Origin: a virus | Taxonomy: Duplodnaviria > Caudoviricetes | Virus record (IMG/VR): IMGVR_UViG_3300032893_000041 | Span: 241 to 64,240 of that record | Length of the DNA: 64,000 nt | Strand: one strand, 5' to 3' | Part shown: one piece after another, positions 16,981-39,280 of the stretch | Position numbering within the stretch: position 1 is the first letter of the stretch | Layout of the letters: each line of letters opens with the position of its first letter | Notes under the pieces: generated by a model | What the model was told of the DNA's origin: nothing | The model's input: only the letters and a program-made list of their open reading frames with translations | Databases searched by the model: none | Program-made: the position numbers and the translations under genes

Positions 16981-18396
16981 TCATTTGTTCCTCAGTTCCG
17001 TTATAAGGTCCAGCTTCTTTTGCAGCGCGTACGCGGTCTTCCTCTCGACCGAAGAGGCGACGATGTCGATATAGGTAACGCAATCGGCGTCCTGGCCGTG
17101 CCGGTGATTGCGGTCTTCGGATTGCAAGCGGTTGCCTAGCGAGAAGCCGTTCTCAAAGAAGACCGTGGTCGAACAACGGTCGCGACCCTGGCCGCCTAAC
17201 AACGTGTGGCCCATGCCGCCGACGGAGTCTTGAGCGATCATGACGCGGCGTTCAGTCTGCTGGTTGAAGCGATTCTTTTCGTCCTCAAGCGTCGCTTGGT
17301 CTAATCCTCCGCGCATGACGCTGGGGTGGAAGTCTCCAAGGACCTCCTTTAAAATATCGACGGCCTGACGGTGCCGGCAGAATACAAGCATCTTACCGCC
17401 GCATTCTTCCATCACGGCGCGGACTTCTAGTGCCTTCGGGTTGCGCTTCGGCTCGACGAGGTCGTGCGTTCGGCCTTCCTCATCGATGATGAAGCCGGAA
17501 CTGATCTGCTGCAACTTTTCGAGCTGCGTGATGACCATCGGCGCCGTGACCGCCTCGTCGCCCAGCATGACCATCAAGTCTTCCTGCATTTCCTTGTACA
17601 GGGCCGCCTGCTTCTTCTCCATCTTGACTTCGCGCGGCGGCGGGAACACCTTGGGCGGGAGGTCGGTCCATTCGGACTTGGTGGCCGAAAAGGAGCAGGA
17701 CTCGAGCAGTTGTTGCAACTCCGCCTTATTCTCTTGCCGCAGGCCGATTACTTGCTTGCCCAGGTACCCGCCCATCACGGCGTAGCGGTTGCGAAACTGA
17801 TAAGGATTGCCCAGCGGCTGCCGGATGAAGCGAAGCTGCGACCACCAGTCCATGACGTTGTTTACCATCGGCGTTCCGGACAGTGCGCGGGTCGTGTGCG
17901 CGAACGGTGCCAGCGATATCATCTTCTTGGTGGTGGACGCCTGGAAGTTTTTGATGCGGGAGGTTTCGTCGGCCACGAGCATGAAGCGCCCGTCCCATGT
18001 CTTAGCAAAGTCGCGCACCCAGTCGCCGCCGGAATAAAGCAGCGCCTCGTAATTCATAATGTAGATGCGCGGCATGTCGCGTATCTTGCCGGGCGGCGGC
18101 CACGCCTCGGGCCACACCCACAGATCGACGTTTTGCACGCCCCACGCCTCGACTTCCGTGGCCCAGTTCCACTTGAGCGAGTTCGGGCAGATGACCAGCA
18201 GGTGTTGCACCGCGTCCTGGCGAACCAGCTCCACGTATTCGTTAAGCGCCACCGCCGTCTTGCCCGTTCCCATGTCCATCCAATATCCGAATCCTTTATG
18301 TCCGAATGATCTCTTTAATGCCTCCACTTGAACTGCATAAGGTTTTCCGCGCAAGTGCCACATAACGCCGGTACCGTTCTTTCCAATGCTTTCCAC
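16981..18396 (-). CDS. SNF2-like superfamily 2 helicase (alternative start 18363)
   Basis: MDMGTGKT, VADETSRIKN, LSGTP, QSEDRNHRHGQ. Confidence 0.9.
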   Translation of the reverse strand: MESIGKNGTGVMWHLRGKPYAVQVEALKRSFGHKGFGYWMDMGTGKTAVALNEYVELVRQDAVQHLLVICPNSLKWNWATEVEAWGVQNVDLWVWPEAWPPPGKIRDMPRIYIMNYEALLYSGGDWVRDFAKTWDGRFMLVADETSRIKNFQASTTKKMISLAPFAHTTRALSGTPMVNNVMDWWSQLRFIRQPLGNPYQFRNRYAVMGGYLGKQVIGLRQENKAELQQLLESCSFSATKSEWTDLPPKVFPPPREVKMEKKQAALYKEMQEDLMVMLGDEAVTAPMVITQLEKLQQISSGFIIDEEGRTHDLVEPKRNPKALEVRAVMEECGGKMLVFCRHRQAVDILKEVLGDFHPSVMRGGLDQATLEDEKNRFNQQTERRVMIAQDSVGGMGHTLLGGQGRDRCSTTVFFENGFSLGNRLQSEDRNHRHGQDADCVTYIDIVASSVERKTAYALQKKLDLITELRNK

Positions 18397-18724
18397 CGTT
18401 AAGTTCTCCCTTGGCGAAGGATTTTATCATGTTGCAGTTAGCGCACAACAACTGGTATTCTTTTTGCCGTGGCAGCCGTCTTAATTTTGCGTATATGCGC
18501 CCGCCTGTTTCCTTACGTTCTTTTTCTCCTCCCCCGTTAACATGGTCTATGCACAGTGCGCGTGCGTCTGTAAACCCGCAATGACGACATTTGCCGCCGT
18601 ACTTTTCAAATACTTCTAATTTAACGCGAAGTCGCCACTCGGCATCTTTCTCCCGGCCTCTATTTTTACGGTACGTCTTCATATACGCCCGCTGTTGTTC
18701 AAGAGTACCATGGTAGGGCATCAT
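18296..18724 (-). CDS. HNH-type (zinc-binding) endonuclease 1
   Basis: CRHC...LCIDHVNGGG...YQLLCANCN; AT-richer than flanks; overlaps the helicase 5' end. Confidence 0.8.
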   Translation of the reverse strand: MMPYHGTLEQQRAYMKTYRKNRGREKDAEWRLRVKLEVFEKYGGKCRHCGFTDARALCIDHVNGGGEKERKETGGRIYAKLRRLPRQKEYQLLCANCNMIKSFAKGELNGGKHWKERYRRYVALARKTLCSSSGGIKEIIRT

Positions 18725-19104
18725 TCGCTTGCCTTCAATCTTTTCCAAACAATCATGGCGAAGTTGGCTACGTCGGCGCATTCCTCCATGGCTTCTTCCG
18801 GCGTCTGATATTGGACCGCCACGGCCAGCTCCTCAACCTCGATGCGCAGCAATTGCAACAGGGCCGGAATGGGAAGCTTCGGCTTGATCAGCTTGTCCTT
18901 ATTGGCAACAAGCTTTGCTTCCATGGCGTCTAGGAAGGTGTTAAGTTCGGGTCGGCGAGATAGGCCACCGAGTTCCCGCGCGTTGCGTATCTCGCCTTTG
19001 AATGCGCCAGGAGGAGCGGGATTTGGACAGTTCACTCGACCGCAATAATATTGCATATCGTCTCCACACTGAAAACACCCCCGGTCGTGACTCATTTTGC
19101 CCAC
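18721..19104 (-). CDS. MazG-like all-alpha NTP pyrophosphohydrolase (MazZ/DUF550-like)
   Basis: EVEE...EECADVANF (ExxE...ExxD) motif; directly downstream of the purZ-like gene. Confidence 0.7.
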   Translation of the reverse strand: MGKMSHDRGCFQCGDDMQYYCGRVNCPNPAPPGAFKGEIRNARELGGLSRRPELNTFLDAMEAKLVANKDKLIKPKLPIPALLQLLRIEVEELAVAVQYQTPEEAMEECADVANFAMIVWKRLKASE

Positions 19105-20216
19105 TCCGGTACGGCGCGGTTGGCGAAATAGCGGATGACTGTGTCTTCGTCCTCCGTCACGTCCTCCTGGTGCGGGCCGAACGAATAGACGTGCTGGCAG
19201 TGCCGGCCTAGGACTTCCTTTTCTATGTTCTCCATCTGGGCCAACCGGTGCCAGAACTCGTTTGGTCCGCGAAGGTAGTCGACGAAGGTCAACGCTACGA
19301 TGTCTGGTCGGTTGAGCGATAACGCGGCGGCGTACTGATCATTGGACCACGTGGCTATACGCCGGATGCGCTTTGAAACGGTGGTGCGCTCGGGTTCGAT
19401 GCCGGGAAAGGCATCTTCCCATCGAAGTTCCTGGCTATCCGGATAGAAAGGACCAGAGTCCCCGATCTGCTCTCCCATTTCATTGAACGAGTGCCCGACG
19501 CGAATGGGAAAGGTACGGACGACCATGGCCACGTTACCGAGAAAGGAGGGGTGTATTCCGGCATCGTTGAAGCCAGAACCGACCCAACAGTCGCGAGAAG
19601 TCGTGTACGGGTAGATATGACCATGGATCAACCCCAGTCCGGTTCCCTGTGGAATTTCGACGGTAACGGCAGCGCGATTTTCAAGATATTCGTTTAGATT
19701 GAGGTCATCGATGTAGGGCGCAATCTTTGGCTCGCCAGCAGCGACGCGCGCCCGGCGCAGCACCTTGCCGGCCAATGTCTGGCCGACGCCCTTTTGGATG
19801 GCGCCATACTTGATGCCGGGCGACTGCTCGATGTCCTTCGCTGCCGCCTTGGCTTCCTCGGTGATGATCGAGGCGCGCGGATGGATGACGAGGCGTTGTA
19901 TGATGCCGCCGTGCGTTCTTTCGCATTCAGCAATCTCTCGCTTTAACGTGGCCACGTCGATGATGGACCCGCCGTTGATGTACACCTTGGACTCACGGCG
20001 GATGACGCCCACGGTCGGCAGATGGTAACAGATGAACTTGGTGCCGTTCTTGTACTGGGTCGTGTGACCCGCCTGCGCCCCGGCGTTCGTTGTGGCGATA
20101 TCGACGCCCTCGGAGCAGGCGTTATGCGCCAGCCACGCCGCAATCTGCCCCTTGCCTTCGGACCCAAATTGTCCACCGACCAGGACCGCCGCACTGCCTT
20201 TTTCTGCCCACTTCAT
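19092..20216 (-). CDS. purZ: PurZ/PurZ0-like adenylosuccinate synthetase paralogue (2-aminoadenine pathway)
   Basis: PurA-fold motifs with Ser replacing the catalytic Asp (GGQFGSEGKG vs GDEGKG); AGHT, YPYTTSRD, RTFPIRVG, ERTTVSKRIRR, LTFVDY. Confidence 0.85.
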   Translation of the reverse strand: MKWAEKGSAAVLVGGQFGSEGKGQIAAWLAHNACSEGVDIATTNAGAQAGHTTQYKNGTKFICYHLPTVGVIRRESKVYINGGSIIDVATLKREIAECERTHGGIIQRLVIHPRASIITEEAKAAAKDIEQSPGIKYGAIQKGVGQTLAGKVLRRARVAAGEPKIAPYIDDLNLNEYLENRAAVTVEIPQGTGLGLIHGHIYPYTTSRDCWVGSGFNDAGIHPSFLGNVAMVVRTFPIRVGHSFNEMGEQIGDSGPFYPDSQELRWEDAFPGIEPERTTVSKRIRRIATWSNDQYAAALSLNRPDIVALTFVDYLRGPNEFWHRLAQMENIEKEVLGRHCQHVYSFGPHQEDVTEDEDTVIRYFANRAVPEWAK

Positions 20217-20638
20217 GTTCGCACTGTGATCCTTTTCAAGATGTCGTTGATGGGGAAAGTACCGCCGCGTGGACGGTTAAACCACGGTTGATATTCGCAT
20301 TCGATAATGCCCGTATTATAGCCCGTGCCAGCCAAGACAGACAAGTGCGCCGGATGAGCGATGTCCGGCACTTTCGTGAACAGCAGCCATCCGGCGGATT
20401 GTCCTGCGTCATGGAAGCGCTTTATCGTCTCGATTTGCAGTGCCGACAGATTCAATGGTAGCTGGTTCGTCTTTCGCCACTTTTCGTATTTACATTCGAT
20501 GAAGACGCCATGCCAGCCGGGCATCTTGACGAACAGATCGAGGAAGCCGGCCTGAAAGCGGGACCGCGTCTTGAGCGCCAGCCCACCCGCCGCGCGCACA
20601 TCCTTGCAGAAGTGGTCCTCGGCCAGATGCTCGTTCAT
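20213..20638 (-). CDS. PD-(D/E)XK / VRR-NUC-like nuclease (resolvase-like)
   Basis: E...GFLDL...FIECK...LSALQ pattern. Confidence 0.7.
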   Translation of the reverse strand: MNEHLAEDHFCKDVRAAGGLALKTRSRFQAGFLDLFVKMPGWHGVFIECKYEKWRKTNQLPLNLSALQIETIKRFHDAGQSAGWLLFTKVPDIAHPAHLSVLAGTGYNTGIIECEYQPWFNRPRGGTFPINDILKRITVRT

Positions 20639-22548
20639 ACCTTCATCTCCTCCTGCATCTCGCCGTAAGTCGCCACGGCCCAGTTGCGGCCTTCCTTGGC
20701 GTCCACATGCAACGGGATGTCGATCTTTATGACGGCGGTCGGCGAGTCTTTATCCACGTCCGTCATGATGCGCAGTGCTTCCCGATATTGCCACTCATAA
20801 ACCGGCATAAACTGATAAGCGAGGTCATCGTGGATCGAGTTGAGAAGGTTGGTATCGTCGCCTTCGGACTCAAAGAACTCGTCTATCTCGCACATCTTTA
20901 ATTTGATGATGTCGGCATTGCCGCACTGTAGCAGCCGATTTAATGCCTTGTATTCCTCGCCCATCTCCTTTAGCCGCGCCCGTCGGCCGAGAAGGGAGAT
21001 CACGTAGCCGCGCGACCGCATGCGGGCACCGGATTCTTTTTGTATGCGTTTGATTTCGGGCATCGAGTTGTGGTAGTCGTTGATGATGGCATACGGGTCC
21101 ACGTCCGTCGCTCCCGCCGCGCGCAGCATGGCGGCAATCTTTCCGACGCCCGCTCCGGTTAGGATGGCCTGATTGATGACCTTGCCGTACTGGCGCCACG
21201 GTTCCTCTTTCGTGCCGAAGACGGACATCGACACGGCAGAGTGCGCATCGATATGCGGCACGGCCCGGTATCCGTCCATCAGCACCTTGACGCGCCCGTA
21301 ATAGGCGAGCAGAACCGGTTCAATCTGACTGTAATCGGCGGAGGCGAACACTTTTCCTTCGTCCGGGATGAAGATCGAGCGCAGCAGTTTGCCCAGCTCC
21401 TTGTTGCGCTTATGAAACTGTTGCAAGTTTGGCTCGTTGCTAGACAGGCGGCCGGTAATGACGCCGAACTCATCATTGCGAAGCTGATTGTAATTAGTGT
21501 GAACGCGACCCTTCCAGATATGCCGTTCCTTGAGCGGGATCAGAAATGAGTCTTTTAAATGCTCATATTTGCGCGCTGCGAGGATAGAGCGGCCGAGAGG
21601 ATTAGTTTGTAGCCACGCCTCGGTGAAGGAAATCTTACCGCCCGGCGTCCGTGCGAAATCCTTGTCTTGCATTCCCAGCGCCCGGAATGCGGGTTCCAAC
21701 TGCGTCGGCGCCTTGGGATTGGTCAGGGTCGGCGGCAGGATTTCCTTGGCACGCTTCAACTTGCCATCTACAATATCGATCACTTCATCGAGCCGACCCT
21801 CATCGAGCCGCATGCCGCGATGTTCCATACGGAAAAGAACGCGCGTCAACCGGCGTTCGACCTCCCATACTTGAACCATCTGCTGCGCCTCAATGTCCAG
21901 GCGCTGGCGGTCCTTCAATCGCCACGTGGCGCTCCCGTCACCCGTGGCGTAATCGACGCCTATCGCATCATCGCCGGCAAGGCGCCAGAAGTTGCCCATC
22001 GTTTCCTTGGCGACCGGTTGGCCGCCAAACTTTCCCGCCAGATGTTTGTATAGCGGGCCGCCCTTCTTGCCCTCGATGTTGAAATATTCGCAGCAGGCGT
22101 CGAGAGTAAACTGCTTCATAAACTCGTTGATCATGGCCTGCGTGACCATGGTGTCTTCGGTCAAACCAGTAATTAAAACTTTAGACACGGGGTTAGCCGC
22201 AAAGTGTAAATCAAATTTCTCGTTATGACCTATCCAACGCAACTCGCGACGAGCCAGCGCTATCTTGGCTAACGCTTTTTCAAATGGGTGTTGTTTGTCT
22301 TTCGATCCGTAATGCTCCGTCGTTGGTGCTTTCCAATCCAGAAGGTTCTTCCCGCCGCCGTGGCGAACTGGAATGTAATAGGTGTCGGAAGGATTGGCTG
22401 AAAACGTAAAAACCCAACCGCATACAAAATTCCTGCGCCAGTCCAACCCGCTGGTTTCAACATCCAATACCACTTCATGGGTGGTGGAATCCGCAATACG
22501 GCGTAGAACTATTTCGGCTTGTTGATCAATTTTCAATCTTTCCTCCAT
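20635..22548 (-). CDS. polA: Family A DNA polymerase with 3'-5' exonuclease, no 5'-3' exonuclease (candidate DpoZ-type)
   Basis: Exo DVETSG, HNEKFD, YATGD; TGRLSSNEPNLQQ; motif A DYSQIE; motif C IHDD; divergent motif B. Confidence 0.92.
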   Translation of the reverse strand: MEERLKIDQQAEIVLRRIADSTTHEVVLDVETSGLDWRRNFVCGWVFTFSANPSDTYYIPVRHGGGKNLLDWKAPTTEHYGSKDKQHPFEKALAKIALARRELRWIGHNEKFDLHFAANPVSKVLITGLTEDTMVTQAMINEFMKQFTLDACCEYFNIEGKKGGPLYKHLAGKFGGQPVAKETMGNFWRLAGDDAIGVDYATGDGSATWRLKDRQRLDIEAQQMVQVWEVERRLTRVLFRMEHRGMRLDEGRLDEVIDIVDGKLKRAKEILPPTLTNPKAPTQLEPAFRALGMQDKDFARTPGGKISFTEAWLQTNPLGRSILAARKYEHLKDSFLIPLKERHIWKGRVHTNYNQLRNDEFGVITGRLSSNEPNLQQFHKRNKELGKLLRSIFIPDEGKVFASADYSQIEPVLLAYYGRVKVLMDGYRAVPHIDAHSAVSMSVFGTKEEPWRQYGKVINQAILTGAGVGKIAAMLRAAGATDVDPYAIINDYHNSMPEIKRIQKESGARMRSRGYVISLLGRRARLKEMGEEYKALNRLLQCGNADIIKLKMCEIDEFFESEGDDTNLLNSIHDDLAYQFMPVYEWQYREALRIMTDVDKDSPTAVIKIDIPLHVDAKEGRNWAVATYGEMQEEMKV

Positions 22549-22859
22549 CCACGCGCAAACTCTTTGTTTTCCCTGGCTTTAATTATATTACAATTAGCAC
22601 AAAGCAATTGATAATCTTTGGACCGTGGTAATTTAGACAAACGAACGATAGTTGAAAACACACCAACGCGGCGGTTGGTTCCGGTTTTCTTTTTATGACC
22701 GTCCCCGTTAACGTGATCGATGCACAACACGCGCGAGTCACTAATTTTGCACCGTTTACATTTTCCACCGTATTTTTGTAATACGATATTACGTAAACGA
22801 TCATAATACGCTCTATACATCGCACGAGTTTTTACAGGGTCGCGTATGCGTTTAGCCAT
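22533..22859 (-). CDS. HNH-type endonuclease 2 (paralogue of endonuclease 1)
   Basis: CKRC...LCIDHVNGDG...YQLLCANCN; AT-rich; overlaps the polymerase start. Confidence 0.8.
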   Translation of the reverse strand: MAKRIRDPVKTRAMYRAYYDRLRNIVLQKYGGKCKRCKISDSRVLCIDHVNGDGHKKKTGTNRRVGVFSTIVRLSKLPRSKDYQLLCANCNIIKARENKEFARGWRKD

Positions 22860-23130
22860 GGCTCGTACTCCGCGACCACATATAAAGGACATAGTCATAT
22901 TGCCAGTCGTTCGATTGCTCGAGCCTTTCCAGCAGGTGCTTGGCCAGGATGGGTGGCATCTCCATCAATTCCAAATCGGTGATGTAATCGAGGTCGTCCA
23001 AACATGCGCTTAGCCAGCGGTTATTACGCCGGATGCGAAAGTAGGCGCGGCCCTCGTACAAAGTCAGCCGCGCCTTGTCGCAACCGTTGTTTGGGTTATG
23101 GCTGGCGCAGGAAGTGGCGTCCTTATTCAT
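22852..23130 (-). CDS. Hypothetical protein
   Basis: 92 aa, overlaps both neighbours. Confidence 0.45.
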   Translation of the reverse strand: MNKDATSCASHNPNNGCDKARLTLYEGRAYFRIRRNNRWLSACLDDLDYITDLELMEMPPILAKHLLERLEQSNDWQYDYVLYMWSRSTSHG

Positions 23131-23766: not shown

Positions 23767-24663
23767 TCAGTACTTCGGGCGGTCGGCGGGCGCTCCCGTG
23801 GTCCCTTCCGCGCCAGAAACGTCGGCCGCTGCGTTCTCCAGGTCCTCGTCCCTGATCTTTGGAGCGTCCTTGAGGAACTTCTCGTAGAACTCCCGGTAGA
23901 GCGCGGCCTCGTCGGCGTCCTCCACGAACCCGTTGGCGACGTAGCGGACGTTAAAGAACGGTCCGGACGGCCCCTGGTCCTCGATGGATTGCAGCTTGAA
24001 GCGCTGACCCCAGGCGGCCACGCGGCTCATCTTGAGTTTGCCCAGCACGGCCTTCGCGGCCTTGATCTGAGAGCGCTGATTGGTGACGATGGACGGCGAC
24101 AGATGCGGGAAATCCGTCAACATGCAGCACATGTTGTACATGCGCGTGCCGGCCGGCTGTGACTGCGGGTCGTCTGGGTCGGACGTGCCGAATTCGAGCA
24201 GGCGCGACTCAACGACGTTGGACTTAGTCGCCCACTTCACGGTCTTCTTGTTCTTCAACTGAACATCGAAGACGGCATTAGACGGCTGCCACTTGACGAG
24301 ATCATCGGTCCGGGCCAGGATGCCGCCGCCGCTCTCGCGCGGGCGCCACAGCATGGCGCGGATGTCCGAGTAGACGATCACGAGGTCGATCTCAGGTCCG
24401 AGAATCTCCTCCGTGATCGTGTGGAAGAAGTCACCAGGCTTGAGGCCGTCGATGGCGTTGAGTTCCTCGGAGATGGCCTGAGCTAGCTTGATCAGGGGGA
24501 GGGCTACGTCCGACCCCCTGATGCTTTCGGTTCCCTGGCCGCCGGTTCCCCGCAAATGCTCCGGGATGACGGCGAGGTCGCCGCCCTGCCCGGTGCGGGT
24601 TACTGCGGTGGACGGCTTCTTGGGTTCGGGTCTGGATGGTGCGCGTGCGGCGGGTTTCGCCAT
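23767..24663 (-). CDS. Putative ssDNA-binding/replication protein
   Basis: 298 aa in the replication block; LPLIKLAQ...PGDFF pattern; acidic tail ending in an aromatic residue. Confidence 0.55.
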   Translation of the reverse strand: MAKPAARAPSRPEPKKPSTAVTRTGQGGDLAVIPEHLRGTGGQGTESIRGSDVALPLIKLAQAISEELNAIDGLKPGDFFHTITEEILGPEIDLVIVYSDIRAMLWRPRESGGGILARTDDLVKWQPSNAVFDVQLKNKKTVKWATKSNVVESRLLEFGTSDPDDPQSQPAGTRMYNMCCMLTDFPHLSPSIVTNQRSQIKAAKAVLGKLKMSRVAAWGQRFKLQSIEDQGPSGPFFNVRYVANGFVEDADEAALYREFYEKFLKDAPKIRDEDLENAAADVSGAEGTTGAPADRPKY

Positions 24664-24729
24664 GGTGGTCTTTCTCCTATAATGAGTGTAGCAGGACGGT
24701 CAGGTTACTATGGGCGACCCGGTGCCGTC

Positions 24730-24920
24730 CAGTCCGGATCGTGAAGTCTCATCCGTGTAGGGGAAACGTCTTGACCTCTCTAAATCCGCATGTTTCGCAA
24801 TAGCGCTCCTGAACGGTAACACGGTCTTCCCTGTCCTGAATAGTGTGGACGCGCGATACCGTCTTCGATTCCCACTTGGACCATCGATGACCCCAAAAAC
24901 ACGTCCACCATCGTATCATC
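24730..24920 (-). CDS. Small Cys/His-motif hypothetical protein
   Basis: MIRWWTCFWGHRW...RYCETCG; boundaries approximate and the stop codon was not resolved. Confidence 0.35.
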
Positions 24921-25446
24921 ATTTCACCTTCGTGACGGAGGTCGTCTTCATGATCGCCGACTTGAAGAGGTCGGGGTCGAGTTCCTTTCCCTCTTCGGCC
25001 ATCGCCTTGGCGGCGCTCGCCAGCGTGCCGGCGTTCACCGTCTCGATGATCAGTTCGGACAGGCCGTTGTCGCGCAGCCATTGCTTGGCCTTGTCCTTGT
25101 CTTCTCCGACCGATACTCGCAGGAGTTCGGATACTGTCACCCGGAACTTGGCACCGTCTTCGCCGATGGTGACGGTGGACACCTTGTTATCTTCGAAGAG
25201 TTGCGGGATGATCTCGCCTTTTAGGCGGCCGAGAAGAGTTTGGGCGCCGTCCATCGAGTTCTGGAAGCTGTCGAGCGCGTCGCGCAGGCCGATATAGAAG
25301 GCGGCCACGGCGGCGGGTTCCTTTTTCAATTTATCGAAGGCGCGCATCGTTGCCGTTGAGAACTTCAACGCGTCGGCGGCGAGGAGAACCGAAGGCTTTG
25401 GCTTCTTCGGCGTGGCCTTCTTCTTGGCGACCTTAGCTGTGGTCAT
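24919..25446 (-). CDS. Conserved phage replication-region protein
   Basis: Lys-rich N-terminus; QWLRDNG...IIETVNAGTL motif; adjacent to the SSB-like gene. Confidence 0.6.
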   Translation of the reverse strand: MTTAKVAKKKATPKKPKPSVLLAADALKFSTATMRAFDKLKKEPAAVAAFYIGLRDALDSFQNSMDGAQTLLGRLKGEIIPQLFEDNKVSTVTIGEDGAKFRVTVSELLRVSVGEDKDKAKQWLRDNGLSELIIETVNAGTLASAAKAMAEEGKELDPDLFKSAIMKTTSVTKVK

Positions 25447-25618
25447 GTTCGTCCACCTTGGCGTCGCCTTGCACCTTGTCGACAGCCGTGGACAGTTCAT
25501 CCAGGGTATCTGCGTCGATGGCGTCGAATAGGTCGTTGATTTGTGATTTGGTCAAGATGACCGTTTGCTGGATATCGTCATTCTCGACGACGCCGATGGT
25601 TATGTAGAACTTCGTCAT
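25433..25618 (-). CDS. Small acidic hypothetical protein
   Basis: TATAGGAG leader before ATG. Confidence 0.55.
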   Translation of the reverse strand: MTKFYITIGVVENDDIQQTVILTKSQINDLFDAIDADTLDELSTAVDKVQGDAKVDEHDHS

Positions 25619-25629
25619 GGCTCTTGCTC

Positions 25630-25962
25630 CTATATGAGTTGAATGGTTGCGGGGTAGTAAGCCTGTTCCTTGCCGTCGTACTTCAATGCTACCACGCGGT
25701 GGTAGCCTAGTCTACCTAGCATCATGAAGCAAACGGCAACGCCCAGCATGTCGCCGACGATGGCGACATAGTCGATGTCCGGCCGGTACTCATAGCGTAG
25801 GAAGATGTTGCGGGCGCGCTCCGCCATGAAGCGCATGCGTTCATCGACTTCGTCGGGATAAGTAGAGCGCGTGAAAATCGTGATGCGCTTGCCGAACTCG
25901 TCCAGCTTATCGAGGTTGAAGCGCTCCTCGTCCTGGGTTACGAACACTCGCGGTCTGGTCAA
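25630..25962 (-). CDS. Hypothetical alpha/beta protein (TTG start)
   Basis: TATAGGAG leader places the start at 25962; VFVTQ...DYVAIVGD...LKYD. Confidence 0.6.
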   Translation of the reverse strand: MTRPRVFVTQDEERFNLDKLDEFGKRITIFTRSTYPDEVDERMRFMAERARNIFLRYEYRPDIDYVAIVGDMLGVAVCFMMLGRLGYHRVVALKYDGKEQAYYPATIQLI

Positions 25963-26073
25963 ATCGGTCGTACTCCTATATAAAATCGCGGCGGGGGACA
26001 TTGGCCGATCCAACGAAATCGGAGGCTCCCCCGCCGCTGAATCGCCGCGACCGTTGGTGCCGGGTGATTGTTA

Positions 26074-32153: not shown

Positions 32154-33875
32154 CTAGTCGCAGGAGCGCGTTCCGTCCGCCGCGATCTTGCAGGCCGCGC
32201 CTTCAACGGGAAGGTTGGAGCGCACGTCGCGCACCACGGCGCCGCGCTTTCCGGTCGGGTTGTACGTGGTCAGACCCTTAGCCCCGCCTTCCCAGGCCGC
32301 CATGTAGATGCCCTTGAACGCGTCCCAGTTGCATCGATCATCGATGTTACACGTCTTGGCGACGGCGGAGTCCACGTGGCGCTGAGCCGTAAACAGCACG
32401 TTTAAGTGGTCCTCAGTACTGCATTCGACGGAGGTCTTGCCCGTCGTACCGAACACTCGCAGACCGTAGTCCTGCAAGGTCACTTCTCGTTCGCCGTCTG
32501 GCATGCGCGACACGCGCTTCTGTTCCAAGAAGATGACCGGCTCGATGCCGCCGGACACGTTGTCGGCCGAAAGAGAAATAGTGCCGGTGGGGGCGATGGA
32601 GGTCAGGTGAGAGTTGCGGATGCCGTGGCTTTCGATTCCGTCCTGGATAGCCTTGGGCAACGTCTGGATGAAGCCGCCGGACAGATAGTCGTCCCGCTTG
32701 AGCGCGGGGAAGCTGCCCTTCTCCTTGGCCAGCTCGATGGAGGCCGCATAGGTCTTGATCTTGAGCGTGCCGAGTACGCGGTTGGCCTCCATCAGGAAGC
32801 CGGGCGACCCGTACGGATGGCCCAGCGCCTCGATGGCGTTGGCCAGTCCGGTGACGCCGATGCCCATGCGCCGCTTTGACTTGGCGGATTCCTCCTGCTC
32901 CTTCATCGGGTAGACGGCACGATCCACGACGTTGTCCATCGCGCGCACGATGTGATAGAGGTCGTCCTCCATGGAGTTGAGGTCCAGGTATAATTCCTTG
33001 TCGTAGGCGGTCTTGCGCACGTACTTGACGAGGTTGACGCTGCCCAGCAGGCAGGCGGCGTGCGCCGGCAACGGCTGCTCGCCGCATGGGTTGGTGGCCT
33101 CGATGCGCTCGCAATACCATAGATTGTTCATGCGATTGATCGTGTCGAGGAAGATTACGCCGGGTTCAGCCCAGTCCCAGGTCGAGCGCATGATCATGTC
33201 CCACAGCGCGGTGGCCTTGATGGTGCGTATGCGCCGGCCGGCGAAGCGGAGGTCGAAATTGGCATCGGCCTGCACGGCGGACATAAACTCGTCGGTCACG
33301 CCGACGGAGATGTTAAAATTTCGAAAGCGATGCTCGTTCTGCTTACACTGCACGAACTCTTCGATGTCCGGGTGATCGACGCGCAGCACGGCCATCTGCG
33401 CGCCCTTTCTTTCCCCCACCGATCGCAGTACGCCGCCCATGGCGTTGAATAGTTCCATCCATTCGACCGGCCCGGTGGCTTGACTGCCCAGCGTCGATAT
33501 CGCAGCGCCCCGGTAGCGGATGCGGGAAAAGTCGTAGCCGACGCCGCCGCCCAATCGCATGGTGTCGCCGGCCTGCCCCAGCACCTTCATGATCGAGGTC
33601 ATCGAGTCGCGGATGATACCAGAAACGAAACAGTTGTATGGAGTGACGATGCGCGGGCTGCCCATGGCGTTCTGCACGCGTCCGCCCGGTAAAAATCGTT
33701 GATCGAGTAGGATGTCGCGGTAGGCCCGGAAGTGGTCTTCGCCGTCCTTGAGAGCGTCGGCCTGCCTAGTGGCGCACTGCTCGAAAGACTCGTTGATGGC
33801 TCGATATTTAGCAGCGTGTAATTCCTGTGAGAAGGGAAGCGTCGGCCCGTATGTCATCTTTTTATTCCCCGTCAT
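32154..33875 (-). CDS. nrdJ: Ribonucleotide reductase, probably class II (B12-dependent)
   Basis: YNCFV, GGGVGYDFS, ATNPCGEQ, IAPTGTIS, C-terminal Cys pair; no beta-subunit gene seen. Confidence 0.88.
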   Translation of the reverse strand: MTGNKKMTYGPTLPFSQELHAAKYRAINESFEQCATRQADALKDGEDHFRAYRDILLDQRFLPGGRVQNAMGSPRIVTPYNCFVSGIIRDSMTSIMKVLGQAGDTMRLGGGVGYDFSRIRYRGAAISTLGSQATGPVEWMELFNAMGGVLRSVGERKGAQMAVLRVDHPDIEEFVQCKQNEHRFRNFNISVGVTDEFMSAVQADANFDLRFAGRRIRTIKATALWDMIMRSTWDWAEPGVIFLDTINRMNNLWYCERIEATNPCGEQPLPAHAACLLGSVNLVKYVRKTAYDKELYLDLNSMEDDLYHIVRAMDNVVDRAVYPMKEQEESAKSKRRMGIGVTGLANAIEALGHPYGSPGFLMEANRVLGTLKIKTYAASIELAKEKGSFPALKRDDYLSGGFIQTLPKAIQDGIESHGIRNSHLTSIAPTGTISLSADNVSGGIEPVIFLEQKRVSRMPDGEREVTLQDYGLRVFGTTGKTSVECSTEDHLNVLFTAQRHVDSAVAKTCNIDDRCNWDAFKGIYMAAWEGGAKGLTTYNPTGKRGAVVRDVRSNLPVEGAACKIAADGTRSCD

Positions 33876-33879
33876 GATC

Positions 33880-34047
33880 AGCCCCACTTGAGAACGAGGC
33901 GGGCGCGCACCCCTCGAAGAATGCGCGCCCGCTGGCAATTTCCATTATCTGCGATGTGCGTGTGACCCAGCTAGACCATGGTCCTCTCCTCTGTCAGTTG
34001 GCCGCGACAAGGCACTCACCCTCAGGCCGTGTGTACCCGGTATGGTA
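33880..34047 (-). ncRNA. Candidate structured leader RNA upstream of nrdJ
   Basis: ~170 nt intergenic; perfect GCGGGCGCGCA/TGCGCGCCCGC stem plus smaller hairpins. Confidence 0.35.
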
Positions 34048-34223: not shown

Positions 34224-34832
34224 TCATCCGGTCTGACCGGGATCGAAAGGTTCGGACTCGCAAATGCCCGAATGTTCTTGCGGCGGGTCCAACTTATCAA
34301 GTTCGGCGGCGATGACCGGCGGCGTATGAGCGCCGTCGATGTCGCGCGTGTCTACTGGGCCGCTTCCCATCTTGGAAAACACGGCCGGCGACGCGCCCTT
34401 GGACGCAAACTGATAGCGCCCGGCGTAGGGCTGCACGGTAGGTTCGTCCAGGATGTGGAAGACCACCTGGGCAATGGGCGCTCCAGCCGGGATAAAGACG
34501 CGGCGCGACGAGTGGTTGGAAATCTCGAGCGTCAGCGCCTTGCCGACCCAGCCGGGTTCAATGACGGTGTTTTGCACGCAGATGCCCATGCGCGCCCAGG
34601 TGGACTTATCGTGGACGACGCCTAGCAAATCCCACGGCATGTTGAAGCTTTCAATCGTCGAGGCCAGCTTAAAGTGCCCCGGCGACATCTCCAGTTCCTC
34701 GGCGACACGCACGTCGTAACCGGCCGGTGAAAGACCAAAAGTCAAGCCATGGGCATGGGTCCGTTCATGGAACGGCTCGATCATGTAGTTGTTGGCGCAG
34801 TATCGGCGAATTGTTTGCGCGGATGCGATCAT
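34224..34832 (-). CDS. dcd: dCTP deaminase (dUTPase-like fold)
   Basis: GLSPAGYDVR, DKSTWARMG, VIEPGW, LTLEISN, IAQVVF, YAGRYQ. Confidence 0.85.
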   Translation of the reverse strand: MIASAQTIRRYCANNYMIEPFHERTHAHGLTFGLSPAGYDVRVAEELEMSPGHFKLASTIESFNMPWDLLGVVHDKSTWARMGICVQNTVIEPGWVGKALTLEISNHSSRRVFIPAGAPIAQVVFHILDEPTVQPYAGRYQFASKGASPAVFSKMGSGPVDTRDIDGAHTPPVIAAELDKLDPPQEHSGICESEPFDPGQTG

Positions 34833-35079
34833 GATACCACGGTCTCCCTTGAACGATTGATTCGCCCGGTCCCTTGCGGTTCCATGGCAACAAAAACATC
34901 TGGCCGTCCGAGTACGCCACCATGCCGTCGAAGTTGCGGGTGGTGCGATGTTCGAAGGAGTCCAGCGGCACGGCCACGAACCCGCCGTCCGCCGCATCGT
35001 TGCCGTGCAACATGCAAGCTCGATGGCGGTACTCGATGACCCAGTTGTTGAGGATGCGAAGCCGCACGATGGAACCTAT

Positions 35080-36690: not shown

Positions 36691-37109
36691 GGCTTATTTC
36701 TCCCCCACGGTCCCGACTGCGCGTGCGGCTGTAAGCGTGCCACTTCCGCCTCCAGCGCCGCGCAGCGCAGTCTGGCCGCTTGGAGATCGGCGAGCAGTTG
36801 GGGGCCGGCATCTTGCAAATAGCGGCCCATGTTGCCGACCGTCTCGCCTCGTCGCAGCCAAAATGCCAGTTCCTCCCGCCGCCCCATCTCCCCGCCCACG
36901 TCCGCACGCTGCAGGGCTGCGAGGGTGCGGAGGATGGTGGCGACTTGTTCAGCCTCTTCCAAGCTCATGGAAAAATACGAGCCATTAGGAGGATCATGTG
37001 GTGCGAAGGGATCATCCAATTCTGAGCGGAATTTGACCGCCAGCCGTTCGATCTCCTCCGGCGGGGGCAGCGCGGCCAGCGGCTTGGCGGCGTCAACTTT
37101 TGTCATCAA
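36687..37109 (-). CDS. Hypothetical protein
   Basis: 140 aa; overlaps the primase stop; GGAGG RBS. Confidence 0.5.
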   Translation of the reverse strand: MMTKVDAAKPLAALPPPEEIERLAVKFRSELDDPFAPHDPPNGSYFSMSLEEAEQVATILRTLAALQRADVGGEMGRREELAFWLRRGETVGNMGRYLQDAGPQLLADLQAARLRCAALEAEVARLQPHAQSGPWGRNKP

Positions 37110-39280
37110 TAACCTCCGTGTGCGTTGAGAAAGGTGATGGCGCGTACCTTGATCGGCCGTCCGCCGACGCGCTTATTGAAGGATGGAAAGCCCAGCCGGG
37201 TCATTCGCGTACCGAAGGTAACGTTGGACATCGGCTTATGGCCGGACGCCTTGGCCCACTCCATGTAGCGCATGTAGACCGACATCGACTCTTCGGCCGG
37301 CTCGACTCCATTCGGTATCTCGTAGTCCGGGTGCTTCATGGCGAGGCCCTGGTGCGTCTGATCGATCAGGAATTGAAGCGCCTGATTGTTCTCTTCGGTC
37401 AACTGATTGATCTTGATCTTGTGGATGCGAGGTTTCTCAAAGCCGCCGCGCGCTCGAAGTCGCAGGTACCCGGCCGCCATACGGTTGAAGATGCCCGGCA
37501 GCTCGGACTTAAGCTTGTTCGACAGAGAAAGGTCTTGTTCATTTTCTCGTAGCGACTCTCCACAGTGCAGATATAGAAGCCGTCGCTCAATCGCTCCACT
37601 ATCGTCCGAGTATCTAAAGTTCTCGTTGCCGACGATGATGACGCGAGCCGTAATGGTGGCATAAGTCTGTTCCTTGTAAAGTTCGCGGACCGGGACGCGG
37701 TCGCCGCCGGTTATGGCCTTGAACATCCGGTCCGCCATGGCCGACATTCCGGACACTTCCGGCGAGATGTTGACGAGCCGCCCGACCATGGCAGTGCGGG
37801 CGCGCTCCTCATTGAAGGTGTCGATGGTGGAAGCCGACACGGCGTCCGGCGCATGCAGCATATGGATAAGGTTGATGAGCGTGGACTTACCGGTGCGCGT
37901 CTCCCCCACCACGGCCAGCGCCGTCTGGAAGGAGATGTCCGGCACGAGCGTCAGGCCAATAAACTCCTCGAAGTTCTGCACCGACAGTTCCTGGTCTCGT
38001 AATCGCTCCTCGTCCGACCTAGGATCGTCGTCGGAAGCCGGTGCTTGCTTGAAGACGCGTTTAATGAAGCGGTCGTAAGTCGGGCACTTGGCGCCCCGGT
38101 CGAAAGAAAAGGGGAGACGATAGAGGATGTAGTCCTCAGGCGACCCTTGTTCGGTGAAGTCGCCAGACATGAGGTCGAACGTGCCATTTTGAAGGCGCAC
38201 CTTTGGAACGTGAATGTCGGGCCAGACCTCGACCATCGACCGAAAAGTAGACAGGGCCTCCCGCATGTCCTTATATCCTATACGAAACTCGTTGATGAGA
38301 CGCGTCTCCAAAGGCTCGAGCCGCTGGGGTACCCAACATCCGTCGTGATACCTGAGCATGGCTCCCGGCTGCCTTCGTAAAAACGGAAGGCCACCCAACG
38401 CGCCGGCCAGCCACTCGGCCCGCAACAGCGACGCCGGTACCTTCTTGGAAGCCACGTCGGTCTGGAATCCCTTGTTGCGAGCGGACTCGACGAGGTTGAT
38501 GATGCGCTTCTCATAAATGCGGTCGTCCCAGTTGTTGTGGCCATGGACGGCCAGACACTCATCCACCGCGCGGCGGCAGCGGGCAAGAATGAAGTCATCA
38601 GGACAGCCGGCCTCCACCATGGCGGCGGTCGCGCGCATGAGGGAGTCATCGACGGTCCCGCCGCCGCCCGGCCCGTGCCATGACATGTCGTTGATGAGGA
38701 ACCACGGCGAGTCCGGCTTGTTGACGGCGGTCTTAATCTCTGCTACAACCCATTCGTCAATGAGTGGAAGTTGGGTGATTGGCGTGTTCTCGAGCGTGAT
38801 CTCGGAGCGCCACTCGTAGGGGCGCTTGGTGTCTGGGTGAATCGACGGCGGGATGACCGTCTGATTACCGGCGCCCATGAAGTCTATGACCGTGAAGCGC
38901 TTACCGGTGACCGAGTCCTTGCGATGAAACTTGGCGGACTTCATGGAATGGGCGGACCGCACCAGGAAGGTGATACCCTTGCTGCCGAATTTGGCTATCG
39001 GATCGCCGGGGATGGCCGAACGGACGCGCTGAATGAACAGCTCGTCCTTGATGTCGATGTCGATCCCGACCAGGAAGGACTCTTTGTCGACCTCGGTGCC
39101 GAGAAGGACACCCAGGTTCCATTCCCTCCCCTGCGTAAAGTACCGATGAATCTCGTCCGGCTTTATTCTGAACTCTAAGAAGTTGGAGTCATTCGGGTAC
39201 TTGGCCTTGCCAGCGATAGGGATGACGTGGTATCCTAGCGCCGCGATCTTTTTGGCTGATTGAATGACGGAGGACGCCAT
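37106..39280 (-). CDS. Bifunctional primase-polymerase domain fused to D5-like SF3 helicase
   Basis: N-terminal GYHVIPI...NLGVLLG...IDID...QTVIPPSIHPDTKRPYEW; Walker A GETRTGKST; FKAITGGD; AIERR. Confidence 0.88.
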   Translation of the reverse strand: MASSVIQSAKKIAALGYHVIPIAGKAKYPNDSNFLEFRIKPDEIHRYFTQGREWNLGVLLGTEVDKESFLVGIDIDIKDELFIQRVRSAIPGDPIAKFGSKGITFLVRSAHSMKSAKFHRKDSVTGKRFTVIDFMGAGNQTVIPPSIHPDTKRPYEWRSEITLENTPITQLPLIDEWVVAEIKTAVNKPDSPWFLINDMSWHGPGGGGTVDDSLMRATAAMVEAGCPDDFILARCRRAVDECLAVHGHNNWDDRIYEKRIINLVESARNKGFQTDVASKKVPASLLRAEWLAGALGGLPFLRRQPGAMLRYHDGCWVPQRLEPLETRLINEFRIGYKDMREALSTFRSMVEVWPDIHVPKVRLQNGTFDLMSGDFTEQGSPEDYILYRLPFSFDRGAKCPTYDRFIKRVFKQAPASDDDPRSDEERLRDQELSVQNFEEFIGLTLVPDISFQTALAVVGETRTGKSTLINLIHMLHAPDAVSASTIDTFNEERARTAMVGRLVNISPEVSGMSAMADRMFKAITGGDRVPVRELYKEQTYATITARVIIVGNENFRYSDDSGAIERRLLYLHCGESLRENEQDLSLSNKLKSELPGIFNRMAAGYLRLRARGGFEKPRIHKIKINQLTEENNQALQFLIDQTHQGLAMKHPDYEIPNGVEPAEESMSVYMRYMEWAKASGHKPMSNVTFGTRMTRLGFPSFNKRVGGRPIKVRAITFLNAHGGY

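Follow-up and report, generated by a model that had tools for sequence, protein, structure and literature searches.

Does the unusual active site of a phage DNA polymerase have to do with the 2-aminoadenine (Z) genes that surround it? This is the question raised by the DNA considered in the present work (hereafter, the window), which embeds 64,000 of the 64,240 bases of the viral record IMGVR_UViG_3300032893_000041; the record has direct terminal repeats and is estimated to be 100% complete. On its minus strand (20635..22548), an open reading frame (ORF) codes for a family A DNA polymerase (PolA) of 637 amino acids (aa) with a 3'-5' exonuclease domain, in which the two aromatic residues of helix O (motif B) are replaced by glutamine and threonine, and which is followed by a purZ gene. 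The data reported below suggest that the enzyme very probably belongs to a separate, purZ-linked PolA lineage, the third one beside the phiVC8-like and the Wayne-like DpoZ enzymes, and DpoZ-like in its genomic context.

Helix O, catalytic residues, and fold of the polymerase

Motif B of the window polymerase, RQYGKVINQAILTG (21154..21195, minus strand), aligns without gaps with the E. coli Pol I segment RRSAKAINFGLIYG, both in the HMMER comparison with the Klenow fragment and in the MAFFT alignment with E. coli Pol I and T7 gp5. R754, K758, N761, and G767 of E. coli Pol I are retained (the first three as R452, K456, and N459), whereas F762 and Y766 are changed to Q460 and T464, respectively, and G763 to alanine. 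Positions 762 and 766 (E. coli Pol I numbering) are referred to as B3 and B4 in the following; the canonical motif B has Phe, Tyr, or Leu at the former and Tyr at the latter, and the window polymerase has neither. The preliminary description of this DNA had pointed to an atypical O-helix with Gln and Thr in place of F762 and Y766, as well as to QCGNAD and IHDD variants within positions 20770-21360; the translation of 21154-21195 and the Klenow alignment agree with the first statement in each detail, and the translation of 20824-20928 (both on the minus strand) agrees with the second.

The O-helix aromatic pair is treated as near-immutable in Pol I enzymology, and Taq Pol I is not known to accept in vivo anything but Tyr/Phe swaps at the two positions. 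The Tyr at B4 is described as "otherwise strictly conserved" in PolA, the Phe at B4 as "unique" to two of the 19 PolA clusters, both of them DpoZ, and residues 762 and 766 as bordering the nucleotide and template pocket (PMC8599892, PMC10201439); viral PolA classes based on residue 762 are given as Phe, Tyr, or Leu only (Nasko et al. 2018, PMC6302109).

Of 8,000 candidates scored in the search of a protein collection, 5,128 were significant relatives; leaving aside the window's own protein, the best 119 are 43-62% identical to the window polymerase. In the 120 best homologues, the B3/B4 pair is Gln/Thr in 115 cases, Gln/Ser in three, Gln/Ala in one, and Leu/Tyr in one, with Gln at position 762 in 119 out of 120. 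Moreover, the alignment of 41 sequences (43-63% identity to the window protein) revealed that R452, K456, N459, and Q460 are invariant and that T464 and G465 reach a conservation of 90% or more. Judging from these sequences, the helix-O motif is a lineage signature, neither a one-off nor a chance or sequencing oddity; since Gln460 is invariant and Thr464 at least 90% conserved over such a range of identity, the odd helix O looks to be under selection rather than drifting.

The ORF matches Pfam DNA_pol_A (PF00476; E = 1.7e-49, 169.2 bits versus a cut-off of 34.3) and phrog_17, "DNA polymerase" (1.3e-85); the match with the Pfam exo1 family (3'-5' exonuclease) is weak (20 bits) and under the cut-off of 23.6. 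Motif A reads DYSQIE (21319..21336), with the catalytic Asp405 and with Glu410 aligned with E. coli E710; motif 6 is the variant QCGNAD (20911..20928; QGTAAD in E. coli); and motif C is the variant SIHDD (20824..20838), which retains the His-Asp dyad and has Asp at the position of E883 (all on the minus strand, from translation and alignment). In the 41-sequence alignment D405, H573, D574, R452, and K456 are invariant, as is proper to family A, and so are the exonuclease residues D29 and E31 (Exo I), D113 (Exo II), and Y200 and D204 (Exo III) (21937..22464, minus strand), which make up a DEDDy proofreading site. Because these catalytic and exonuclease residues are invariant, the polymerase looks active and proofreading. 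One protein of the lineage (P0095, 863 aa) additionally contains domains of the HNH (PF13392) and intein (PF14890) types, which look like an intein/homing-endonuclease insertion into the polymerase.

The AlphaFold2 model of the polymerase, built with 41 homologues, has a mean predicted local distance difference test (pLDDT) score of 91.6, and residues 451-463 are helical in it, as expected for helix O. The top Foldseek match is phiVC8 DpoZ, with a template modeling (TM) score of 0.77, and the Klenow fragment reaches 0.79. Since the two fit the model equally and Foldseek does not separate them, the fold was dropped as evidence of DpoZ membership, on which it says nothing. Another Foldseek match, PDB 3hpo, is entitled "Y714S mutant bound to G:T mismatch"; Y714 of the Bst enzyme is presumably the equivalent of Y766 and, if this is so, the structure hints that a small residue at that position alters mismatch handling.

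Association of the polymerase with purZ

In the window, purZ (19092..20216, minus strand; phrog_1211, 2.9e-59) follows polA in the same orientation after 419 bp, i.e., polA lies in a purZ cluster as functional DpoZ genes do. Its product is of the succino-amino-deoxyadenylate synthase type, and its P-loop, GGQFGSEGKG, has Ser where PurA has its catalytic Asp, as is reported for phage PurZ sequences (PMC12884076). The best NCBIfam match of this protein is NF038379 (PurZ), with 206 bits, under the cut-off of 300; it is 39% identical to the PurZ of Ochrobactrum phage OH, and is nearer to the OH, PMBT28, and phiVC8 PurZ proteins than to the Wayne type.

The distribution of purZ was checked in IMG/VR loci chosen by polymerase similarity only (210 pattern matches, 145 relatives, of which the best 80 were kept). 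A PurZ homologue is encoded 1-5 kb downstream of polA in 77 of these best 80 loci. As for the loci without purZ, the sequence of two of them (L027 and L044) ends less than 1 kb past polA; L058 alone among the related loci combines 10 kb of downstream sequence with the absence of any purZ, DatZ, or SNF2 match. Its helix O is of the canonical Leu/Tyr type, and it possibly represents a basal relative without Z. Within the same 80 loci, all 36 that carry the NQxxxTG motif have purZ downstream (the motif was counted by pattern and reading by eye; L037 reads NQT and L027 NQ...L). The preliminary description had considered that the motif might be common in phages without purZ, and the outcome, 36 out of 36, is the opposite. 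A Ser-type P-loop is present in 75 out of 78 PurZ hits, the remaining three not matching the pattern.

The usual gene order in the relatives is polA, a small nuclease gene, DUF6378/DUF5664, purZ, mazZ, a YfbR-like HD gene (DatZ), and a SNF2 helicase gene, the latter being found downstream in most related loci. In the window, the order on the minus strand is HNH, polA, a 141-aa endonuclease-like gene, purZ, a gene for a 127-aa MazG-type protein, HNH, and the SNF2 helicase gene. The 127-aa protein (18721..19104, minus strand) is a MazZ-like small MazG-type nucleoside triphosphate (NTP) pyrophosphohydrolase according to a custom hidden Markov model (HMM) of a family that includes phiVC8 p26 and the "NTP pyrophosphohydrolase" of OH (E = 6.8e-28); the one Pfam match, to PRA-PH, is weak (E = 0.0099). 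This protein has a Cys-rich N-terminal extension of about 30 residues (CFQCG...CGRVNC), which is not apparent in the 107-120 aa MazG-type ORFs of the relatives.

Phylogenetic position of the lineage

Trees were constructed from 85 sequences and 584 columns (9 of 94 rows, i.e., fragments shorter than 540 aa or exact duplicates, were dropped), with FastTree support values and with the Shimodaira-Hasegawa-like approximate likelihood ratio test (SH-aLRT) of IQ-TREE; pairs of values are given in this order. The polymerases with Thr or Ser at B4 form a monophyletic supergroup (1.0 and 100). Its forms comprise the NQxxxTG clade of the window, with Gln at B3 and Thr at B4; an NMxxxTG clade with Met and Thr at the same positions; and an OH-like clade with (G/A/S)MGMLT/S; the last two are purZ-linked as well. 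Together with basal forms bearing Leu/Tyr or Met/Asn, most of which have purZ, the supergroup makes up one group (0.973 and 94.9), which is sister to the phiJL001-like PolAs (1.0 and 99.9), the phiVC8-like DpoZ enzymes falling outside. The basal purZ-linked loci L043, L050, L061, and L065 retain Leu/Tyr, and Tyr is found at B4 also in the non-Z phages phiJL001, Pam3, YuA, R5C, and HTVC023P, in E. coli, and in T7. The basal purZ-linked L049 and L051 (NMGLINW and NMGMLNG) have Asn at B4, a further state of this usually invariant residue.

The third-lineage reading rests on this position in the tree, on the lack of the phiVC8-type helix-O insertion, and on a score under the NCBI DpoZ cut-off, the last two of which are detailed in the next section. 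The expectation of the preliminary description, i.e., a distinct polymerase type, is borne out in the form of this purZ-linked lineage. The lineage is large and known almost only from metagenomes. Only two lineages of Z-DNA-specialized polymerases have been described, the phiVC8-like and the Wayne-like DpoZ; a literature search, with supplements and the 2021 Science PurZ/DpoZ papers outside its scope, retrieved neither a Gln/Thr helix O nor a third lineage.

Comparison with described polymerases

DpoZ enzymes are reported as two groups, paired with PurZ0 and PurZ (PMC12884076), and the preliminary description was correct in recalling that they carry substitutions in helix O: the phiVC8-like ones have L455 and F459 plus an insertion (PMC8599892), and the Wayne-like ones Phe at the Tyr position (PMC10201439). 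The phiVC8-like enzymes (PolA cluster #18 of Czernecki et al. 2023, "DpoZ-2", PDB 7PBK; also PMBT28, PSA28, and Barton) resemble the window polymerase in being proofreading PolAs encoded next to purZ and mazZ, in lacking Tyr at B4, and in having a non-aromatic B3; phiVC8 DpoZ has, moreover, its own motif C, HDS, also without Glu. They differ in that B3/B4 is Leu/Phe and not Gln/Thr. NF038380 (phage_DpoZ_1) is the best NCBIfam match of the window polymerase, but its 256.6 bits are under the cut-off of 500. Two insertions are described in the phiVC8-like enzymes, one loop that interrupts helix O and another of about 20 aa between helices O1 and P (PMC8599892). In our alignment, the 7-aa helix-O insertion is confined to phiVC8, PSA28, PMBT28, and Barton, whereas the window polymerase has the same R452-x3-K456 spacing as E. 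coli; the long insertion past motif B is absent from it too. In the trees, which have a small reference set, its lineage groups with the phiJL001-like PolAs instead of the phiVC8-like clade. Identity to the phiVC8-like enzymes ranges from 24 to 28% (24% to phiVC8 DpoZ, 27.5% to PMBT28 DpoZ), and the values for the Klenow fragment and phiJL001 PolA are 27.6% and 27%, respectively.

The Wayne-like DpoZ (cluster #19, "DpoZ-1", linked to PurZ0) is likewise a PolA associated with the purZ family and with a residue other than Tyr at B4. Nevertheless, the BLASTP match between Wayne DpoZ and the window polymerase is partial (23%, E = 4.7e-05), and its B3/B4 is Phe/Phe, where the window polymerase has Thr at B4; in addition, the Wayne module is described as combining PurZ0 with DutZ/DmtZ (PMC12884076).

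The nearest cultured relative is the PolA of Ochrobactrum phage vB_OspP_OH (Wolominvirus; OH), with 33% identity over 96% of the protein. It belongs to the same Thr/Ser supergroup with non-aromatic residues at B3/B4 (Met/Ser), and the gene order is the same: polA, nuclease, DUF6378, purZ, NTP pyrophosphohydrolase, an HD "5'-nucleotidase" that belongs to the DatZ family of the relatives, and helicase. OH differs from the window in its helix O (GKRMAMGMLSM, with Ala at N761, Met at B3, and Ser at B4), in the retention of DatZ and DUF6378, and in its 41-kb podovirus-type genome. Finally, the phiJL001-like PolAs (cluster #11: phiJL001, YuA, Pam3, R5C, and HTVC023P) share the DYSQxEP motif A and an Exo II-Exo III segment longer than that of E. 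coli, but have Tyr at B4 and Leu or Phe at B3; phiJL001 is described as lacking 2-aminoadenine genes (PMC8599892).

Possible role of helix O

The explanation that we consider the best, and moderately likely as a whole, is that the enzyme is the replicative, proofreading PolA of a Z-making phage and a member of the third purZ-linked lineage. According to this model, a complete 64-kb phage of lytic type would make Z nucleotides by means of PurZ and the MazZ-like enzyme, and its polymerase would copy DNA containing Z:T pairs and incorporate dZTP. polA, the small nuclease gene, (DUF6378/DUF5664), purZ, mazZ, (datZ), and the SNF2 helicase gene would be inherited as one module. The hallmark of the lineage, GK-x2-NQ-x3-TG, would put Gln and Thr in place of the aromatic residues against which the incoming nucleotide and the templating position are packed. 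The loss of the B4 Tyr probably arose within a stock that was already linked to purZ, because basal purZ-linked relatives retain Tyr; through it, the pocket of the pre-insertion site and the nascent pair might have adapted to Z, or relaxed towards it in a tolerated manner. If A is discriminated against, part of this would be due to the exonuclease, which is intact; a similar proposal exists for phiVC8 DpoZ. The roles of Q460 and T464 in this are likewise proposed ones, and whether the window polymerase prefers Z is, in our judgment, an evenly balanced matter.

Several points weigh against this model. The purZ association may go back to a single acquisition event, in which case the 36 loci out of 36 are not 36 independent observations. 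The tree reference set is small, with 13 named polymerases and the D29-like enzymes left out, and the support of the NQT subclade is only moderate (0.83 and 65.5). Both the Z genome and the Z preference are predicted from gene content. Furthermore, helix-O substitutions are dispensable for the replication of a Z genome, because basal Leu/Tyr forms occur with purZ and because of the PrimPol of cyanophage S-2L, which is described as non-selective, adenine being excluded by DatZ (PMC8599892, PMC10201439, bioRxiv 10.1101/2025.10.22.683976). Lastly, the structural study of phiVC8 DpoZ regards single substitutions in the polymerase site as unlikely to explain the choice of Z versus A, and points to the exonuclease domain for this preference (PMC8599892, PMC10201439).

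Some of these points are shared by the main rival explanation, which we regard as somewhat unlikely: the enzyme would be an ordinary, non-selective replicase, its helix O a historical accident marking the lineage, and the nucleotide pools would decide on Z as in S-2L. The trees require no more than one purZ acquisition in the common ancestor, and the canonical Leu/Tyr of the basal purZ-linked relatives fits well with it. The precedent of S-2L (same sources) indicates that the choice between A and Z need not sit in the polymerase, and the window genome also has a PrimPol-D5 protein; on the other hand, S-2L relies on DatZ, and the window genome is without DatZ but with a PolA. Since neither DatZ nor DUF550 nor DutZ was found here, pools alone seem weak for excluding A. 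The conservation of Gln460 and Thr464 described above indicates selection and thus also argues against a neutral marker, as does the strict conservation of the B4 Tyr in the other PolA clusters, all the known exceptions being purZ-linked.

These exceptions are three, i.e., the two DpoZ clusters and the lineage of the window. A stronger claim can be built upon them, namely that the loss of the B4 Tyr is a convergent and required adaptation to Z-DNA (Phe twice; Thr, Ser, or Asn in the third case) and that selection of dZTP over dATP at insertion by the aromatic-free NQxxxTG enzymes sustains Z genomes free of DatZ; it seems to us improbable.

A third and much larger purZ-linked lineage, in which both helix-O aromatics are gone, constitutes a natural experiment: three independent departures from the B4 Tyr, all in purZ contexts, and members with and without DatZ in one lineage. 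Two questions thereby become testable, i.e., the share of helix O in the choice between A and Z, and the upkeep of a Z genome without a dATPase. A DpoZ-like PolA in a reduced Z-cluster should be of interest to the fields of Z-DNA and of PolA fidelity, and the NQxxxTG enzymes are candidate tools for Z-substituted DNA. Should the NQxxxTG enzymes prove non-selective, they would still clearly depart from the Phe/Tyr/Leu-762 scheme by which metagenomic viral PolAs are classed. Two metagenomic "DpoZ homologs" are reported to raise dZ incorporation in vivo (bioRxiv 10.1101/2025.10.22.683976).

The missing DatZ

PurZ phages are reported to encode "mostly" DatZ, with MazZ-2 or DUF550 (PMC12884076). The window genome departs from this canonical Z-cluster (PurZ, MazZ, and DatZ): over its complete length of 64,240 bp, it has no match with PF12917 (YfbR-like), PF13023 (HD_3), or PF01966 (HD), and an HMM built on 61 DatZ-like ORFs of the relatives did not retrieve any window ORF even at E<=10. 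NDT (PF05014) and Pfam MazG (PF03819) gave no match in the whole genome either. The same holds for DUF550 (PF04447) and DUF5664 (PF18909), a blank that is weak alone, as the controls matched nothing, but that is backed by negative results in the window of tblastn with PMBT28 MazZ and of a custom HMM of the DUF6378/DUF5664 type. The ORF at about 34224-34835 (minus strand) was considered as a DutZ-like dATP/dGTP hydrolase in place of DatZ, but nothing speaks for a role in dATP clearance, and BLASTP gave no match to Wayne DmtZ-DutZ at E<=0.01; it is an NCBIfam equivalog match to dCTP deaminase (98 bits versus a cut-off of 92.8) adjoining the ribonucleotide reductase gene, and we read it as an ordinary Dcd.

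In the window, a gene for an HNH endonuclease of 161 aa (18296..18781, minus strand; phrog_2255, 6.3e-09) stands between mazZ and the helicase gene, exactly where the relatives have datZ. This hints that datZ was lost along with the insertion of a homing endonuclease; the interval has no room for a remnant of datZ. As for the relatives, 30 out of 33 NQxxxTG loci in which the interval from purZ to SNF2 is fully visible keep a DatZ-like HD gene, the three without it being L012, L029, and L036. In the Met/Leu-Thr sister clades, DatZ is kept in 18 slot-complete loci and absent from 8 (n = 26; L070 was corrected by hand). DatZ loss is therefore recurrent, scattered, and independent of the helix-O sequence. 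Two of the DatZ-less loci, L029 and L036, have between mazZ and the SNF2 helicase gene an ORF of 554-556 aa whose N-terminus resembles, by eye, the ribonucleotide reductase of the window.

These data bear on the explanation put forward in the preliminary description, according to which the Gln/Thr helix O would itself exclude dATP at insertion, so that the phage would manage without DatZ. The absence of DatZ and of the other searched dATP-clearing families agrees with it, as do the placement of the substituted residues along the nucleotide and template pocket (PMC8599892, PMC10201439) and the confinement, so far, of a non-Tyr B4 to purZ-linked lineages. The DatZ absence that it started from thus holds; the causal part does not, because the same motif stands beside DatZ in 30 out of 33 slot-complete relatives, without correlation between motif and loss. 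DatZ is also missing in 8 out of 26 Met/Leu-Thr loci and hence independently of the B3 Gln, and in phiVC8 DpoZ discrimination has been placed largely in the exonuclease (PMC8599892). We regard this explanation as quite unlikely; the helix-O motif is, as far as the compared loci go, a trait of the lineage with or without DatZ and not a replacement of DatZ. In the absence of datZ, adenine exclusion in this phage must occur via the polymerase and its exonuclease or via effects of PurZ and MazZ on the pools, or else be incomplete. It is hardly credible that the polymerase is degenerate or limited to repair, with the PrimPol-helicase encoded at 37106-39280 replicating the genome in its place, because, even if such a PrimPol/D5-type protein is present and Taq Pol I is so restrictive at the two aromatic positions, the ORF is intact, neither its catalytic residues nor the carboxylates of its exonuclease vary within the lineage, its fold is confident, and its position is fixed in dozens of genomes.

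Organization of the module and of the rest of the genome

The 141-aa endonuclease-like gene between polA and purZ (20213..20638, minus strand) matches phrog_93, "endonuclease" (7.3e-07), and the same slot is filled likewise in many relatives (tblastn, same position). The module ends with a conserved gene (16981..18396, minus strand) for the SNF2-family helicase (Pfam SNF2-rel_dom, 2.8e-20; phrog_62, 1.2e-93). A second HNH endonuclease, of 121 aa, is encoded immediately upstream of polA (22533..22898, minus strand; phrog_2255, 6.1e-09). The two HNH proteins are paralogous (BLASTP, 50% identity over 84 aa, E = 2e-27) and represent the sole two copies in the window; the pair brackets the polA-purZ-mazZ block.

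Outside this module, there are genes for a UvrD-type helicase, a ribonucleotide reductase (32154-33938, minus strand; Ribonuc_red_lgC, E = 9.7e-105), and a PrimPol/D5_N/DUF5906 primase-helicase fusion of 724 aa (37106-39280, minus strand), the genome thus having both a PolA and a PrimPol-type enzyme. A prophage or cellular origin was discarded: the scan of 185,579 prokaryote genomes gave no prophage sign and no host clue, and retrieved only three real relatives, all on short contigs or contigs of metagenome-assembled genomes, one of which has purZ and DatZ. Just upstream of the replication module, three consecutive genes (23767-26013, minus strand) match the gp34-like, gp33-like (DUF7307), and gp32-like families of Pseudanabaena phage Pam3.

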